Source: a bacterium | Lineage (GTDB): Bacteria > Elusimicrobiota > JBDRMW01 > JBDROU01 | Assembly: GCA_043809745.1 (NCBI GenBank) | Contig: JBDROU010000079.1 | Span: forward strand, 1,163-65,162 | Direction: 5' to 3' | DNA: 64,000 nucleotides | In this document: positions 50,944-57,495 of the stretch, one piece after another | Layout: the number at the start of each line of letters is the position of its first letter | Numbering within the stretch: position 1 is the stretch's first letter | The notes under the pieces: model-generated | Database searches by the model: none | Seen by the model: the letters and a program-made list of their open reading frames with translations, nothing else | What the model was told of the DNA's origin: nothing | Made by a program: the position numbers and the translations under genes

Positions 50944-51888
50944 CTATTTTTTACGGAAGAAATTTGAGTTTTTTATGATTAAAACGTTTGATTCCGCTAA
51001 TATTTTGAATTGTTCAAGAAAATGACCAAAAGCCTCGTTGTTGAATAAAGATATTACAATCAATTCTAAAGATGAGTTGGTTTTCCGCATGAAATAATCG
51101 AATATCTGCTGAAACATGGTCTTTGCGAGAGCATCGTAAGGAAACTTTCCAGTTGCGACACCTAAAGCAGGAATAGCAATAGTTTTTATGCTTTTTTCTT
51201 CCGCAATCTTAAGTATATTGGTTAATGATTGTTGTACATATGCTTTTGTTGTTTTCTTTTGTATTTCTCTATCTGGGAGCATAATGGCGGCATGCAGTAT
51301 GTAATTAAAAGGCAAATAACCGGCTTTTGTAGCTACAACGTCACAGATGTTTATCTCTGATCCGGTTTGTCTTGCTTCCTTTCTTATTGAATCTCCGCCT
51401 TTTACCCTTATAATTGACGCAAGGCCCTGTTCCATCCACAGATCAGTTGTGTCCGGGCTTACTATTGCTTCAACAGGGAGGCTTATTAAGTCCCCTTGCA
51501 GTATTTGAATTGAAGTGCGGTCCAGTGTAACTGTACAAAAAGAGTCTTCCAAAATGTCAGATAGGTTCGTGTCATTTCTTATGTTAACGCTATTTGACAG
51601 GAATTCGTCGTCAAAGGTTGAAACCTGCTTTAATTCTCCCCCGGTATTCTTGAGCGAGTTTCCCAGGTCAGTGATTATGGATTCGAGAAGGTCTTTTTCT
51701 TCAACTGTCAAATCTTTACTCATCTTCTCATTAACCATTTTTAGTATTTCCAGCGGAAGCACTTTGGTATTTTGATTATTTTTATCCTCTGAGATTTCTT
51801 TTATTTTATCTTTTGCAAGGTCGTAAAGATGAAAAGCAAGATGATTTAAATACGGATTAATTTTCTTATCTTCTGAAGTTTCTGACAT
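50944..51888 (-). CDS. macro-domain (ADP-ribose-binding / Appr-1-p-processing fold) protein with ~130-aa N-terminal helical extension, paralog A
   Basis: QILQGDLISLPVEAIVSPDTTDLWMEQGLASIIR aligns to Af1521-type macro KLAQGDITQYPAKAIVNAANKRLEHGGGVAYAI. ILHAAIMLP to FHTVGP. IKTIAIPALGVATGKFPYDALAKTMFQQIFDYF to ESIAFPAVSAGIYGCDLEKVVETFLEAV. The canonical NAAN and GGG loops are replaced by SPDT and MEQGLAS. Confidence 0.6.
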   Translation of the reverse strand: MSETSEDKKINPYLNHLAFHLYDLAKDKIKEISEDKNNQNTKVLPLEILKMVNEKMSKDLTVEEKDLLESIITDLGNSLKNTGGELKQVSTFDDEFLSNSVNIRNDTNLSDILEDSFCTVTLDRTSIQILQGDLISLPVEAIVSPDTTDLWMEQGLASIIRVKGGDSIRKEARQTGSEINICDVVATKAGYLPFNYILHAAIMLPDREIQKKTTKAYVQQSLTNILKIAEEKSIKTIAIPALGVATGKFPYDALAKTMFQQIFDYFMRKTNSSLELIVISLFNNEAFGHFLEQFKILAESNVLIIKNSNFFRKK

Positions 51889-52018: not shown

Positions 52019-52954
52019 CTATATTTGTTTAGGTTGTTTGGAAGATTTCATAGTCAATGTGTTTGCCGCCGCAGCAATTTTGAGCTGTTCAACAAAATAA
52101 ACGTAGGCTTCTTTATTAAACAAAGAAATTATTATTAAATCTATACAGGTGTCAGATTTTTTAAGGAGATAATCAAAAATGCATAGCATCATTGTTTTTG
52201 CGAGTGCATCGTAAGGGAATTTATTAGTTGCTACGCCCAGAGTAGGTATTGCGATAGATTTTATTTGTTTTTCTTCAGAAATCTTGAAAATGTTTGATAA
52301 AGCTGTTTGAATATATTTCCTGTTTGTTTCCTTTTTAGATTCTCTTTCCGGGAACATGATTGCCGCATGAAATATATATTTTTGGGACATCTCCCCAGCA
52401 GTTGAGGAGACAACATCACCTACCCGGATAGAGCCTGCCAGGCGCGCTTCTCTTCTGATAGATTCTCCTCCCTTTAACCTGATTATTGAAGCAAGGCCCT
52501 GCTCCATCCAAAGATCAGTTGTGTCCGGACTTACGATTGCTTCTACAGGAAGATTTGTTATGTCGCCAAGAATTACTTGTACAGAAGTCTTGCCGATATC
52601 TACTGTTGAATAAGCTTCCTCTACAATGCTGGTTATTTTATAAGGTGCGTTTTTTAAGTTTTCAAGTGCTTCAAGTTGAGAGTCTAGAGATGATATGGTT
52701 TCTAATTTATTTTCAGACTTTTTCAGTGAAATATCAAGATCGGAAATAAGTGATATAATAAGCTTTTCTTCATCGTCAGTTAAATTCTCGGCGATCTTCT
52801 TTTTTAGCATTCTTAAAATGTCCAGAGGCAATATTGCGGCTATATCCTGCTTATTATTTGAGAGTGATTTAATTTTTGATTTTGCAAAATTGTACAGCGA
52901 AAATACAAGATTATTCAGGTGAGGATCGATTTTATTTTCTTCTTTTTTTTGCAT
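52019..52954 (-). CDS. macro-domain protein, paralog B (tandem duplicate of 50944-51888)
   Basis: About 55-60% aa identity to paralog A over full length. Identical 24-aa stretch LPVEAIVSPDTTDLWMEQGLASII. Same divergent loops. Confidence 0.6.
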   Translation of the reverse strand: MQKKEENKIDPHLNNLVFSLYNFAKSKIKSLSNNKQDIAAILPLDILRMLKKKIAENLTDDEEKLIISLISDLDISLKKSENKLETISSLDSQLEALENLKNAPYKITSIVEEAYSTVDIGKTSVQVILGDITNLPVEAIVSPDTTDLWMEQGLASIIRLKGGESIRREARLAGSIRVGDVVSSTAGEMSQKYIFHAAIMFPERESKKETNRKYIQTALSNIFKISEEKQIKSIAIPTLGVATNKFPYDALAKTMMLCIFDYLLKKSDTCIDLIIISLFNKEAYVYFVEQLKIAAAANTLTMKSSKQPKQI

Positions 52955-53056: not shown

Positions 53057-53263
53057 TTATAAAATTTCCGGTATTTCCAATCCAATATTAAATACCCGGG
53101 CGGTTATGTTAATAATGATCAATAAAATAGCGATAAGCATTCCGAAGCGGACCGCTAACTTCCAGATCTTTTTGTCTTGTTTAAAATCTTTGTAAGCCAC
53201 TAACGAGTTGTCTAAAACAAGATAGCACAAAAGAAAAATGATTATCCAATAGATAAGTGACAT
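53057..53263 (-). CDS. small membrane protein (68 aa, two predicted TM helices)
   Basis: MSLIYWIIIFLLCYLVL...GMLIAILLIIINITARVF. Strong SD on the coding strand: aaacaAGGAGGTGGAGAatg (rc of 53264-53283). Confidence 0.55.
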   Translation of the reverse strand: MSLIYWIIIFLLCYLVLDNSLVAYKDFKQDKKIWKLAVRFGMLIAILLIIINITARVFNIGLEIPEIL

Positions 53264-53391: not shown

Positions 53392-54165
53392 TTACTGCAA
53401 GCCATTAATGAAATCAGTAAAATATAGAATCTTTTTGATGTCATCAGGATTAAACAGAAATGCTTCCACATCCTTTGTTAAACGCTTAAAATCTAGAGTT
53501 TTGCACTTTAGCAGCATTTTTTTCTTAAGGCTTGCTATATCTTTAACAGAGATTTTTTGCTGTAGATATTTAAAATTTGGCTTTGCTCTGCCGAACAAAA
53601 ATACTGTATCGTAAAAATCCCTGCCCAGACTTCGTTTGCGGTGCAATATCGCGTAAAGTTTTTGTGAGAGCAAAATATCAATTGGCACAAAGCGGATTCT
53701 TAAGAACACATCAAACTTGTTAAGTATAATGAAAGTAGGTTCGTAATTGAAATTTTGTGGTTCGGTGTCAATTTGTATCAGTAATTTTTCTTCCTTATAC
53801 CCGGATAAACCCAAGTCATATAATACTTTGTTTATCTTCAAATAACATCTATAGGCTCCTTTAAAAACATTTTTTATTTCCACTATATATCCTTCCTGTT
53901 CCAACTTTCTCTTTATTAAGTCTGTCATCTGTCCAAATTCAAAGCGGTCTAATCCTAAATTGTCAAAATCAAGATCTTCTGAGAATCTGTTGTGATCATA
54001 TATAATGCGTAGTGCTGTGCCGCCCATAAACGCCAACTTGTGACCAAATTTAGAATCAAATATCACTGACAAAACTTTATATTGCAGATACTCCCGCATT
54101 ATATTTCTTTTGAAAGGTTTTAGATGATCCGGATAAAAAGCTTCTATTTGTTTAAGATCTAGCAT
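53392..54165 (-). CDS. abiEii: AbiEii-family nucleotidyltransferase toxin (type IV toxin-antitoxin / abortive infection)
   Basis: FMGGTALRIIYDHNRFSEDLDFD (GGTAL...R.SEDLDF signature of AbiEii/DUF1814 nucleotidyltransferases). ATG at 54165 preceded by AAGGAAT. The ORF track's longer TTG start at 54189 is less likely. Overlaps the abiEi stop by 14 nt. Confidence 0.75.
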   Translation of the reverse strand: MLDLKQIEAFYPDHLKPFKRNIMREYLQYKVLSVIFDSKFGHKLAFMGGTALRIIYDHNRFSEDLDFDNLGLDRFEFGQMTDLIKRKLEQEGYIVEIKNVFKGAYRCYLKINKVLYDLGLSGYKEEKLLIQIDTEPQNFNYEPTFIILNKFDVFLRIRFVPIDILLSQKLYAILHRKRSLGRDFYDTVFLFGRAKPNFKYLQQKISVKDIASLKKKMLLKCKTLDFKRLTKDVEAFLFNPDDIKKILYFTDFINGLQ

Positions 54166-54775
54166 TTTGGATATATTCCTTAAAAGCAAGGATTCTTCTT
54201 AAAAGTGACTTTTGCCCAATTTTCTCTGCCAAAACATCTAGTTTTTGGAGATTAACCTGTTTTTGGAACTCGTTTGTGTTTATTCTTAGTTTGGAGAAAT
54301 CATATTTGTCTTTTATAGTCGGATTAATATATAAATAATCCAGCACAGCCTTTTCCGGGCAGGCAATTTGGAAGTGTGTGTTATTGCTGCTGATCAAATC
54401 ATAACCAAAAAACATTTCTGACTTTATCATATGATACTTAAAATTAGCAAGAGGCGTCTTAAAAGAGCGTGTTAGCAAAGTGCTCATGGACGTGACCGCA
54501 TAAACGCTTTCCGGTATCAGATTATAGTAAGACAGGGCTGACTGAAGAGAGATATACGACGGTTTGTATATTTTATTAGATATGATAAAAAGACTAAATT
54601 CATCTAATTTTTCATCTGTGAATATATAATAGCCTCTAAGAACTTTTCTTATATATCCTTTATTCTGCCATTCATTAAGTCTGGTTCGATAGAATCCAGG
54701 GTCAATAATACGTATATCTGTCAGCGAGAATACCACAAAATCCTTAAGTGCCCTGTGAAACTCTAAAAAAGTCAT
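54152..54775 (-). CDS. abiEi: AbiEi-family antitoxin / transcriptional regulator
   Basis: MTFLEFHRALKDFVVFSLTDIRIIDPGFYRTRLNEWQNKGYIRKVLRGYYIF and SLQSALSYYNLIPESV match the AbiEi N-terminal wHTH and the conserved S.ALS.HGLIPE region. AGGAAG SD lies 5 nt upstream of ATG 54775, so the 12 upstream codons in the ORF track are unlikely to be translated. Confidence 0.75.
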   Translation of the reverse strand: MTFLEFHRALKDFVVFSLTDIRIIDPGFYRTRLNEWQNKGYIRKVLRGYYIFTDEKLDEFSLFIISNKIYKPSYISLQSALSYYNLIPESVYAVTSMSTLLTRSFKTPLANFKYHMIKSEMFFGYDLISSNNTHFQIACPEKAVLDYLYINPTIKDKYDFSKLRINTNEFQKQVNLQKLDVLAEKIGQKSLLRRILAFKEYIQNARS

Positions 54776-54790
54776 ATTACTTCCTATAAA

Positions 54791-54804
54791 TACTAATATT
54801 AGTA
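54791..54804. promoter_or_regulatory. perfect 14-bp palindrome TACTAATATTAGTA immediately upstream of the abiEi SD: candidate AbiEi autoregulatory operator
   Basis: tactaat|attagta is self-complementary. It is positioned 8-20 nt upstream of the RBS. Confidence 0.45.
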
Positions 54805-54908
54805 CTTTCAAGAAGTATATTATATATAATATGGCTGTTTGTCAAGTGGAAAATGTAAAATTTATTAGCAGTAGAGATATTCTAAAATTAGAGCAAAATT
54901 AGCATATC

Positions 54909-55512: not shown

Positions 55513-57495
55513 TTAATTACTTTGGTTCGGAGAGTTTCTGAAGTAGGCCGGCCACGATGCAACTCCTGCTGATCGGGAAAGCGGTACGGAAATGATTTGA
55601 TCCTGTTCTATTCTGTTTGAACTATCTTTTGGAAGGTGGTTTTCAATCATGTCTGTGAATTGTTTTATTGTGATGAGTTCATTCAGCATAAGATATTTTC
55701 TCGAAGCTTCGATCCCTGGTTTGACAAGATTGTAAACCTGATTACTCTTTATAACAGAAATCCCCCAATATGCTGATACTTCTTCCCAGTAGCCCGGATT
55801 AAATATTTGAGGCAATTTTTCTCTATCAACGCCGTATTCAAGCATATACATGATTTGAAATCTCACCACATCTATAGCTTCAGCCGGTTTCTGTGCGGTA
55901 TGCATCATGGATTCAATAAGATAGGCTAGTCTTTCACGCTTGACATTTCTGTGCTGGGATAATTCTCTTAATGCCTGCTTGAGTCCCGGCTGTGCTAATT
56001 CAAACACCTCATCATGTCTTGTTATAGGAAATCCATGCTTTTTGCATGCCTGTTCCCAATATGATGGGGTGCCGATTCGCCCCTTTGATCCCGCTTGCCT
56101 GATATATGTACACTCTTCACGAATAACTTGAAAAGGATCTTTGCGGAAAGTATTCTTTTTTATATTTGGTTTATACTTGAAACCTTGCGGATACGGCGGC
56201 CTTTTGAGCAGCAGTTCGCCGGCTTCTTTCTTAAACGCTTGTTCTATAAGACCAAGCTGAACATTAATATCCTGTGATTCTCCTAAAATATTCAGAATTG
56301 TGTCTGCAACTTTCCTGTAAAGCGTGTCTCTTTGGAAAGTGTATGCTATGTCTCTCAAATTTTCAATAACAATTTCTGGGAACAGTGATATCAAAATCGT
56401 TGCAAGATTGGCAATAAGTTCGTTCTTAAAAGGGTTACTTACAAAGCCTGCTTCATGGTTCAACGTATGCTGGAGTTCATGCAGGGCTACTTCAAACCTG
56501 AATATAATCATGAGCTGCTCTCTGGCCTTAGCTTTTTCCTTTTGCGGTATGTGCGAAAAATGTTTATCCAGAAACACTTCTGCCATATTTTCAATTTTGC
56601 TTTTTATAATAACAGAACGTCCCATTGCTGTAAAACCTTCAAAATCAGGTTCTGTTGTGTTGTCTAAGCGCTCTGCTACAAGTACATTTCTTGTAACGCC
56701 GCTTTTAAGCTGCAGAGCGACTGTATCAATGATGCTATATGCTCTGTACAAAACACCCATTTTTACATCAATAGTCGCGCGCACAATAAAACCATGGTTT
56801 AGTATGAACTCATTGAATGCCCTGCAATTTTGTTCATATTCAATTAGAATATCAGCAATCTGAGCTGAACCGGTTTTTGCTCTCTCCATAAGACGCCTCA
56901 TCATGTGTTCATCTGCGCTGAATACGCTTATGAGTGCATTTCTTAAAGTATTTTTTTCCTTGATTTTCAGTTTGTATTCAATAGAAACTTTTTTTAGATA
57001 ACCAAGCATTTTAGCGCGCAATTCATTATGAAATTTGTGAGGATATTTGTTTGAATATTCGGCTAATGCATAAAGAATTTTGCTCAAAGCCAGCTGTGTC
57101 TTTTTCTGTTCAGGAGTAATACTTGAGAGTACTGCCGTATAAGCAAGATCCGGAAGCACATGCATTAAAGCAATCGCTTTGGTCAAAACAGCCGTGAATT
57201 CTTTTCTTGTTAACATAAGCTGCGGATGATTCTTTTTTTGATTATTTGCCGGCGGCGGTTTATAATTGAACAGATTACGAAATAAATCAAATAATTCTTG
57301 CCTTGAAACAACTTTTTGGCCGGTCTTTGTGACCGTCTGCGTATCCTGCTGTTGCTCGGCAGGTGATATTGGTACCAACGGCTGGTTTATAATTTCGGTT
57401 GTTCCCAAAGGAGCAATCTGCTTATAAGCATGGAGTTCATTTTGAATGAAGAATATGAGCAATATGATTAGAGAGATTATTTTTTTTAGAAACAT
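55513..57495 (-). CDS. secreted hypothetical protein with HExxH zinc-metallopeptidase-like motif
   Basis: N-terminal signal peptide MFLKKIISLIILLIFFIQNELHA. FEVALHELQHTLNHEAG (HELQH) at nt ~56470-56484. No other recognisable family features. Confidence 0.5.
   Translation of the reverse strand: MFLKKIISLIILLIFFIQNELHAYKQIAPLGTTEIINQPLVPISPAEQQQDTQTVTKTGQKVVSRQELFDLFRNLFNYKPPPANNQKKNHPQLMLTRKEFTAVLTKAIALMHVLPDLAYTAVLSSITPEQKKTQLALSKILYALAEYSNKYPHKFHNELRAKMLGYLKKVSIEYKLKIKEKNTLRNALISVFSADEHMMRRLMERAKTGSAQIADILIEYEQNCRAFNEFILNHGFIVRATIDVKMGVLYRAYSIIDTVALQLKSGVTRNVLVAERLDNTTEPDFEGFTAMGRSVIIKSKIENMAEVFLDKHFSHIPQKEKAKAREQLMIIFRFEVALHELQHTLNHEAGFVSNPFKNELIANLATILISLFPEIVIENLRDIAYTFQRDTLYRKVADTILNILGESQDINVQLGLIEQAFKKEAGELLLKRPPYPQGFKYKPNIKKNTFRKDPFQVIREECTYIRQAGSKGRIGTPSYWEQACKKHGFPITRHDEVFELAQPGLKQALRELSQHRNVKRERLAYLIESMMHTAQKPAEAIDVVRFQIMYMLEYGVDREKLPQIFNPGYWEEVSAYWGISVIKSNQVYNLVKPGIEASRKYLMLNELITIKQFTDMIENHLPKDSSNRIEQDQIISVPLSRSAGVASWPAYFRNSPNQSN

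Follow-up and report, generated by a model that had tools for sequence, protein, structure and literature searches.

Our analysis of a 64,000-nucleotide stretch of DNA from a member of the Elusimicrobiota (GenBank assembly GCA_043809745.1, contig JBDROU010000079.1, positions 1,163 to 65,162; hereafter the window, with position 1 as its first letter) has identified a two-gene abiEi-abiEii (AbiE) locus on its minus strand. Taken together, the evidence makes it likely, with a probability that we put at roughly 85%, that this locus is a self-contained AbiE toxin-antitoxin/abortive-infection cassette with its own promoter and an operator at which the antitoxin, AbiEi, represses it. Three observations carry this reading. 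Both proteins could be assigned by family models, fold and motifs; an inverted repeat of 40 bp upstream of abiEi is conserved in position and symmetry at homologous loci; and one residue of the predicted recognition helix of AbiEi co-varies with one base pair of that repeat.

Identity of the toxin and the antitoxin

The window sequence reads as an antitoxin-first bicistron. The antitoxin/repressor gene, abiEi, lies at 54775..54152 on the minus strand (ATG at 54775, stop codon ending at 54152, 207 amino acids), and abiEii, the gene for a toxin with a DUF1814 nucleotidyltransferase domain, follows at 54165..53392 on the same strand (ATG at 54165, stop codon ending at 53392, 257 amino acids). For each gene a more distal start was considered and rejected. 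Mechanical extension of the abiEi open reading frame (ORF) leads to a TTG at 54811, and 32 of 32 aligned homologues start at the Met of ATG 54775; a segment end at 54811, as given in an earlier, sequence-only reading of this DNA, corresponds to that extension only. The TTG at 54189 that the mechanical ORF list gives for abiEii was rejected because the match to the PADLOC AbiEii model begins at the first residue of the product that starts at ATG 54165. Homologous loci align from the same first residue of AbiEii, with ATG in 142 of 144. An identical protein in NCBI (P0001) is labelled 'hypothetical protein'.

AbiEii is a DUF1814 nucleotidyltransferase toxin, as judged from its Pfam match, its PADLOC match and its motifs. 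The match to PF08843, which the sequence-only reading had suggested as a check, was obtained at 70.5 bits (E 2.7e-19) with a cut-off of 22.5, and PADLOC model PDLC02313 was matched at 1.7e-94 over model positions 1-252 of 254. When a profile of 27 AbiEii family members was searched against the PDB, it found Helicobacter pylori JHP933 (4o8s, E 1e-7); MenT4 (6y56) was a weak match that was not significant (E 0.51). Mutation of motifs I (hGG), II (R..DhD), III (KLxAaxxR) or IV (+DxxD) abolishes the toxicity of Streptococcus agalactiae AbiEii (PMC3985639), and the counterparts of all four are invariant or at least 90% conserved among the 27 members. In the window, motif I (as defined in PMC3985639) is G48-G49-T50 (54016..54024, minus strand), which is invariant. 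Motif II, R60-F-S62-E-D64-L-D66-F-D68, includes the catalytic Asp pair and lies at 53962..53988 on the minus strand, with R60, S62, D66 and D68 invariant and D64 conserved in at least 90%. Motif III (K169-L-Y-A-I-L-H-R176) and motif IV (R182-D183-F-Y-D186) together occupy 53608..53661 on the minus strand, and their residues K169, R176, R182, D183 and D186 are invariant. The nucleotidyltransferase signature GGTAL...RFSEDLDFD that had been recognised by eye is thus present, and reads FMGGTALRIIYDHNRFSEDLDFD in AbiEii.

AbiEi matched PADLOC model PDLC02241 at 2.5e-60 over its full length (positions 1-199 of 199). This clade of approximately 205-residue AbiEi proteins is already catalogued as AbiE by the PADLOC models, which both window proteins match end to end and which are silent on operator or specificity. 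An AlphaFold2 model of AbiEi made with 33 homologues reached a predicted local distance difference test score (pLDDT) of 91.6 and a predicted template modelling (TM) score, pTM, of 0.85. It has an N-terminal winged helix, made of helices 3-9, 18-24 and 30-39 with strands 42-46 and 49-52 as the wing, and then an alpha/beta domain at the C terminus; the third helix, residues 30-39, is the predicted recognition helix. When this model was searched against the PDB with Foldseek, the best match was S. agalactiae AbiEi (6Y8Q_A; E 5.1e-8, probability 1.00, TM 0.58/0.61 over 204 columns), and the third-ranked was Mycobacterium tuberculosis Rv2827c (1ZEL; E 5e-3, TM 0.35-0.47). The winged helix-turn-helix that the sequence-only reading had seen in AbiEi was therefore recovered by the model. 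A loop at residues 84-92 (NLIPES) lies between helix 77-83 and strand 93-98; its residues L86, I87, P88 and S90 are invariant, and the 10-residue block with the lowest pLDDT, the C-terminal tail aside, is 81-90, which covers part of it. The protein contains PSYISLQSALSYYNLIPES. A motif previously written as S.ALS..LIPE is also present, with its spacing off by one residue in that notation, and is actually read as SLQSALSYYNLIPES.

Predicted promoter and operator

Directly upstream of abiEi we predict a sigma-70-type promoter belonging to the cassette itself. On the coding strand, the region runs TTGACA (54845-54840), 17 nt, TAATAT (54822-54817), ACTTCTTGAAAG, TACTAATATTAGTA, TTTAT, AGGAAG, TAAT and then the ATG. 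The predicted -35 hexamer TTGACA (54840..54845, minus strand) belongs to a conserved stretch, CTTGACAAA, which does not vary between the window and its four closest relatives, and the predicted -10 hexamer TAATAT occupies 54817..54822 on the minus strand. The positions of these hexamers would place the transcription start near 54810, 35 nt upstream of the ATG. From the -10 box to the Shine-Dalgarno (SD) sequence runs a 40-bp imperfect inverted repeat (54778..54817), the predicted AbiEi operator, in which 16 of 20 pairs are Watson-Crick. Its promoter-proximal arm covers 54798-54817 and its SD-proximal arm 54778-54797. At position 54817 the -10 hexamer overlaps pair 20, the outermost of the operator, the predicted transcription start would fall at about pair 13 of the left arm, and the SD sequence of abiEi, AGGAAG (54780..54785, minus strand), lies inside the SD-proximal arm, where the family consensus is GGAG. 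At the centre stands a perfect 14-bp palindrome, TACTAATATTAGTA (54791..54804), which consists of the inner half-sites TACTA and TAGTA and a 4-bp spacer, ATAT, and which ends 5 nt before the SD sequence. It had been noted previously as a perfect palindrome just upstream of this site, and its presence there is confirmed. Further copies of the operator were sought in the window, and only the one site was found.

Whether this element means anything was judged by comparison among loci. Scans of genome and metagenome collections gave 160 loci whose AbiEi proteins are 40-64% identical to that of the window, and three closer relatives (62-76% identical) were added individually to make 163 homologous loci. 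The clade as a whole is larger: 315 proteins came from the first search, and two collection scans gave at least 585 and at least 579 confirmed stretches. The hosts named in the records include Omnitrophota, Elusimicrobiota, Aminicenantes, Patescibacteria (among them the cultured Minisyncoccus), Atribacterota, Desulfobacterota, Bacteroidota, Ignavibacteria and others. For the upstream comparison we used 146 unique regions, namely that of the window and those of homologous loci whose upstream sequence extends for 120 nt or more. In 80% of these regions, compared with 7% of shuffles, the best inverted repeat of 40 bp had 13 or more of its 20 pairs complementary, and in 77 of the 117 regions that reached this level its centre lay at -22 or -21 from the ATG. 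A palindrome missing from homologous loci had been named as the observation that would tell against an operator; what we found is an inverted repeat at the same position, which also co-varies with the recognition helix. Two of the loci (L013 and L131) have perfect 18-nt operator arms upstream of abiEi.

When 107 loci were aligned on the centre of the repeat, the consensus was TTG, 17 nt, TGnTAtTAT, ATTTCttAaaagTGcTA, NNNN, TAGCAttttt.aGAAAT, A..ATG. The TTG is kept 17 nt upstream of the -10 element, and TGnTAtTAT is followed directly by ATTTC. The operator can be divided into an inner half-site (pairs 3-8), an outer box, ATTTC/GAAAT (pairs 15-19), that is strongly conserved and approximately 74-96% paired, and a central 4-bp spacer that is asymmetric in the family and only about 30% paired. 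In the family alignment, the -10 hexamer overlaps operator pairs 20-25, the left outer box precedes the position predicted for the transcription start, and the SD sequence is found within the right arm. Since the outer left arm (ATTTC) falls between the -10 element and the predicted start, it is probably not transcribed, and its symmetry would then act at the level of DNA. The spacer that reads ATAT in the window is TATA, TTTT, ATAA and TTAA in the four closest relatives, so that the 14-mer of the window is perfect because a variable spacer happens to read ATAT. The comparison indicates that the functional unit is the inverted repeat of approximately 40 bp with its two 18-20-bp arms; the sequence-only reading, which had offered the 14-mer as the operator, picked the right site and too small a unit.

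A simpler view would deny the 14-bp palindrome any function and put it down to chance in AT-rich intergenic DNA. By palindrome statistics the 14-mer alone is indeed unremarkable: the window has five perfect palindromes of at least 14 bp where dinucleotide shuffles lead one to expect 4.3, its AT-rich tail has two where 1.5 are expected, and right beside the operator stands a 16-bp perfect AT-only palindrome, ATATTATATATAATAT (54817-54832). The case for function therefore rests on conservation across loci. The position, arm sequence and symmetry of the repeat are kept across many phyla, among proteins that are 40-76% identical, and the operator co-varies with AbiEi. These comparative data refute the chance view, which we regard as extremely improbable for the repeat as a whole; what is due to chance is the perfection of the central ATAT alone. 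As for the 16-bp palindrome itself, it is the longest in the window, abuts the operator, covers the predicted -10 region and looks like AT-rich promoter sequence. A role for the 14-bp palindrome as a terminator, given its position downstream of ybgC, was also considered and rejected, as there is no T-run and the element accompanies abiEi, not the upstream genes.

Co-variation of antitoxin residue and operator base

Mutual information was calculated between every AbiEi column and every operator pair (4140 combinations), with APC correction for the background of shared ancestry. Residue 31 and pair 6 came out at the top of all combinations (1.19 bits, corrected 0.89, z 15.2). In the window, this residue is Thr31 (codon at 54683..54685, minus strand), which comes second in the predicted recognition helix. 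At pair 6, 107 of 107 loci have a Watson-Crick pair, in one of four forms (G:C 74, A:T 21, C:G 10, T:A 2), and which form a locus has follows residue 31. Arg is found with G:C in 69 of 70 loci and Lys with G:C in one locus; Gln goes with C:G (9/9) and Ile with T:A (2/2), while Ser, His, Ala, Thr, Asn, Pro or Glu accompany A:T in 20 of 20 loci. The rule fits 101 of 102 loci, and the window has Thr31 with A:T. Both characters need about 20 independent changes on a neighbour-joining tree built without residues 27-33, and when operator states were shuffled among the tips 10,000 times, at most 68 of the 102 loci were concordant. Loci fetched later, outside the 102, also obey the rule, with GTACTA....TAGTAC in two that have Thr31 (P0002 and P0003) and GTGCTA....TAGCA in one that has Arg31 (P0004). 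Contact of Arg with G is a classic major-groove interaction.

The next signals linked pairs 5, 6 and 8 to residues 29 and 30, and after these came residues 46 and 47 at the tip of the wing, which co-vary with pairs 13 and 11. This pattern of helix and wing-tip residues fits the docking of a winged helix, in which the wing would make its contact half a turn further out. Residues 101, 105 and 116 of the C-terminal domain co-vary with outer pairs 14-18, which hints that this domain may also touch the outer ATTTC/GAAAT box. Altogether, the conserved position of the repeat and the co-variation of residue 31 with pair 6 constitute strong indirect, comparative evidence that AbiEi reads the arms directly and represses its own operon. 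The proposal, made earlier from the sequence, that AbiEi autoregulates through an inverted repeat is supported on these comparative grounds.

The gene junction

The 3' end of abiEi and the 5' end of abiEii overlap by 14 nt (54152..54165, minus strand; AAT GCT AGA TCT TAA in the frame of abiEi, ATG CTA GAT CTT AA in that of abiEii), exactly as first reported for this locus. Among the homologous loci, abiEii stands directly after abiEi in 151 of 160. The commonest junction there is an 8-nt overlap, AAT GCT TGA in one frame and ATG CTT GA. in the other (83 of 138 loci), and the 14-nt form occurs in 18 of the 138. In the window TGA has become AGA. The substitution is silent in the frame of abiEii (CTT to CTA), and through it AbiEi gains Arg-Ser before it stops at the next TAA. 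By this comparison, the 14-nt overlap derives from the 8-nt overlap that is usual in the family. An AGGA lies, poorly spaced, 12 nt before the abiEii ATG. Together with the overlap it suggests translational coupling, by which synthesis of the toxin would depend on translation of the antitoxin.

Proposed mechanism and comparison with known systems

Based on these observations and on published work with other AbiE systems, we predict that the cassette works as follows. AbiEii would add nucleotides to the 3' ends of tRNAs and so stop translation, by analogy with the MenT toxins and with S. agalactiae AbiEii, which has been argued to extend tRNA 3' ends (10.64898/2026.01.19.700257). AbiEi's C-terminal domain, together with its loop at residues 84-92, would neutralise AbiEii. 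A recent preprint reclassifies AbiE from type IV to type VII and reports that S. agalactiae AbiEi binds AbiEii through a flexible loop, D85-E86-I87, which enters the active site, and induces the toxin to phosphorylate itself at T65, which follows the motif II Arg by two residues (10.64898/2026.01.19.700257). In the window, AbiEi may likewise bind the toxin and induce auto-phosphorylation, with Ser62 as the candidate site. This residue is invariant in the register R60-x-S62-x-D64-x-D66, that is, R-x-[S/T]-x-D-x-D (PMC3985639, 10.64898/2026.01.19.700257); its equivalence to Thr65 is drawn from motif register only, and the AbiEi loop is likened to D85-E86-I87 by loop position only. A type VII route based on Ser62 is thus plausible. 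At the DNA level, the N-terminal winged helix of AbiEi would bind both arms of the 54778-54817 repeat. AbiEi on both arms would cover the edge of the -10 box, the predicted transcription start and the ribosome-binding site, and the operon would be repressed by negative autoregulation.

The closest model for such an arrangement is the AbiE system of S. agalactiae (SAG1284/SAG1285; 6Y8Q), whose AbiEi represses PabiE through two 23-bp inverted repeats 3 bp apart, each bound by one monomer, cooperatively (PMC7319586, PMC3985639). Like the window locus, it is an antitoxin-first bicistron with overlapping genes, its AbiEi combines a winged helix-turn-helix with a C-terminal antitoxicity domain and is the best fold match, and its AbiEii has motifs I-IV intact. 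Its promoter also lies within about 70 bp of the ATG, with two inverted repeats of approximately 20 bp, 3-4 bp apart, over the start region (PMC3985639, PMC7319586). The two systems differ in detail. Their AbiEi proteins are only about 20% identical, with no match at the sequence level, and the arms of approximately 18-20 bp with a 4-bp spacer in the window compare with 23 bp and 3 bp in S. agalactiae. The gene overlap is 14 nt (8 nt in the family) as against 4 nt, the candidate phospho-acceptor is Ser62 as against Thr65, and the conserved loop reads L-I-P-E-S as against D-E-I.

The M. tuberculosis system MenA4/MenT4 (Rv2827c/Rv2826c; 1ZEL, 6Y56) also resembles that of the window in having a COG5340 antitoxin with inverted repeats, through which MenA4 autoregulates, and in the GGT ... 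RFS.DLDF signature that MenT4 shares with the window's AbiEii. In contrast, Rv2827c has 293 residues and an extended C-terminal domain, and it acts on four 23-bp repeats with negative cooperativity (PMC7319586), whereas the window has one pair of arms; its fold match to the window's AbiEi is weaker than that of 6Y8Q.

H. pylori JHP933 (4O8S/4OK0) is the closest solved sequence relative of the window's toxin. It shares motif II (NRFSEDLDFD) as well as motifs III and IV, but only about 100 residues align. We know of no AbiEi-type partner or operator for JHP933.

Points against the proposed reading and its alternatives

Several results weigh against the reading set out above. In searches of general family collections, AbiEi scored below threshold with Pfam PF13338 AbiEi_4 (15.9 bits against a cut-off of 25, E 0.014 under relaxed settings, with no Pfam match at E 0.01) and far below the cut-off of NCBIfam TAA_AbiEi (NF047376; 32.6 bits against 150, E 5.9e-8). 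Sequence searches of the PDB with AbiEi, both as a single sequence and as a 33-sequence profile, gave no match even at E 10, and the tie to 6Y8Q came through the fold search only. PF13338 does match 19 of the 33 AbiEi family members at E<=1, with a best value of 2.5e-6. These sub-threshold scores reflect a divergent clade and not a different fold. A lack of profile hits, which the sequence-only reading had named as telling against it, was not what we observed: AbiEii matches PF08843 above its cut-off, and both proteins match PADLOC models over their full length. The main interpretation given in that reading is thus supported. The transcription start has been placed from hexamer positions alone. 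For MenT4, whose RFS.DLD register is the same, a lack of phosphorylation has been reported (10.64898/2026.01.19.700257), and this makes the Ser62-based type VII mechanism uncertain. Moreover, a defence role should not be assumed, because in E. coli the AbiE system of S. agalactiae failed to protect against 32 coliphages (10.64898/2026.01.19.700257). Lastly, the non-Watson-Crick cells in arm pairs 3-10 comprise 67 G.T and 25 A.C, an asymmetry that a pure DNA operator does not predict and that hints at a constraint at the level of RNA.

This last point leads to the view that the palindrome is mainly an RNA element, a 5'-untranslated-region hairpin that hides the abiEi SD sequence or stabilises the 5' end of the mRNA, with co-variation of the arms reflecting RNA pairing. 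Folding of the full palindrome yields -15.7 kcal/mol (z -4.98), with AGGAAG paired; RNA beginning at the predicted start still folds at -7.6 kcal/mol (z -2.35) with part of the SD sequence paired; and the palindromes of homologues fold similarly as RNA. The excess of G.U-compatible mismatches on the sense strand is what an RNA helix would be expected to show, but it may also stem from the SD sequence (GGAG) and from T-rich constraints on the right arm. Above all, a hairpin offers no explanation for residue 31 predicting the identity of pair 6, and not mere pairing, in 101 of 102 loci, nor for the wing-tip residues that co-vary with pairs 11 and 13, and the outer left arm, ATTTC, which is the best conserved (93-96% paired), lies where it is probably absent from the RNA. 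We consider it improbable that the element is mainly an RNA structure. An RNA hairpin is possible as an additional layer beside the operator, but it is not the explanation.

The two levels could also be combined. The palindrome might act as a dual-level switch, at once a reprogrammable AbiEi operator in the DNA and an SD-occluding 5' hairpin in the RNA, so that synthesis of antitoxin and toxin would be gated twice. We regard this as speculative and rather unlikely. If it were true, specificity would be set largely by residue 31 (Arg with G:C, Gln with C:G, Ile with T:A, small or polar residues with A:T), the approximately 20 switches would protect AbiE cassettes that are co-resident or incoming against cross-repression, and the 67:25 excess of mismatches would be the trace of the second, RNA constraint.

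Genomic context and role of the cassette

The genes that flank the cassette encode a YbgC-type thioesterase, two macro-domain paralogues, a malate/lactate dehydrogenase, a flavodoxin-like reductase, UvdE and two tRNAs. The sequence-only reading had marked the whole segment downstream of the window's giant gene as accessory and defence-like. Our analysis does not support this, since the neighbours are mostly of the housekeeping kind and no other PADLOC system was recognised among them, the only matches being weak and confined to single domains (DarG macro, CARF_ADA). When a 68-residue membrane ORF, YbgC, a macro-domain protein and a 660-residue ORF from the window were searched by tblastn against the 163 homologous loci, there was no match. 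Because none of its window neighbours recurs at those loci, only the cassette behaves as accessory; by this comparison it is made up of two genes only and is found in variable contexts.

This variety of contexts bears on what the cassette does. The same parts could serve a mobile element for addiction or stabilisation, or regulate growth in response to stress, and not act in abortive infection by phage. Such a role is suggested by the variable genomic contexts, by the failure of S. agalactiae AbiE to protect against coliphages and by an account of AbiE stabilising an integrative conjugative element in Streptococcus suis (PMC11062541). On the other side, none of the window ORFs from 50.9 to 63.6 kb could be recognised as an integrase, a transposase or a conjugation gene, the GC content of the cassette (33-35%) is like that of neighbouring genes, and L. 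lactis AbiE is cited as aborting phage infection (in 10.64898/2026.01.19.700257). We view these other roles as a real but tentative possibility, and one that we think somewhat unlikely; a role of the window's cassette in phage defence would itself be an extension from other systems.

Several further features of the window were recorded. A single ORF of 16,873 residues (234-50855, plus strand) fills most of it; the GC content of this giant ORF is 41-47% except in two 2-kb bins (0.36 and 0.37), and that of the 3' tail is 33-40%. Just beyond it, 50944-51888 and 52019-52954 (both minus strand) are tandem paralogues of 314 and 311 residues that share a common N-terminal region and a C-terminal macro domain (PF01661, ~1e-14). 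A DarTG system was considered for this pair and rejected, as the macro domain alone matches DarG (1.8e-7 and 4.4e-7) and no DarT was found beside it. The 68-residue ORF at 53057-53263 (minus strand) has two predicted hydrophobic segments and no family match; it follows abiEii on the same strand at a distance of 128 nt and is not part of the cassette, since it is absent from all 163 homologous AbiE loci. The 660-residue ORF at 55513-57495 (minus strand) has an N-terminal hydrophobic segment and an HELQH motif, with no Pfam or PADLOC match. At 57722-60382 (plus strand), an 886-residue protein matches adenosine deaminase (PF00962, 8.7e-12) with its C-terminal ~220 residues, as well as the deaminase part of the PADLOC CARF-ADA model (1.7e-11), while its N-terminal ~630 residues are unassigned. 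Outside the window, at the locus of a 62%-identical homologue (L163), a gene pair with helix-turn-helix and Fic domains at 5317-5985 is toxin-antitoxin-like and has the AbiE cassette approximately 1.5 kb upstream. This points to a toxin-antitoxin or defence cluster in that genome, not in the window.

Significance

In conclusion, the locus adds a new member to the well-known AbiE family, in a divergent environmental clade that PADLOC already recognises, and the picture of how AbiE works is unchanged. What has been gained is that two NCBI 'hypothetical proteins' are now confidently assigned to an AbiE cassette with its predicted promoter, predicted operator and coupling junction mapped. Further, a clade that extends across Omnitrophota, Patescibacteria, Aminicenantes, Bacteroidota, Desulfobacterota and others is seen to share one operator architecture. 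The definition of a 40-bp operator and of a simple, testable residue-to-base rule should be modestly useful to the toxin-antitoxin field. The rule for residue 31 bears on how AbiEi recognises DNA, a matter for which no structure of a protein-DNA complex was found in the AbiE literature cited here, and it may provide a means to predict cross-talk or insulation between AbiE systems.

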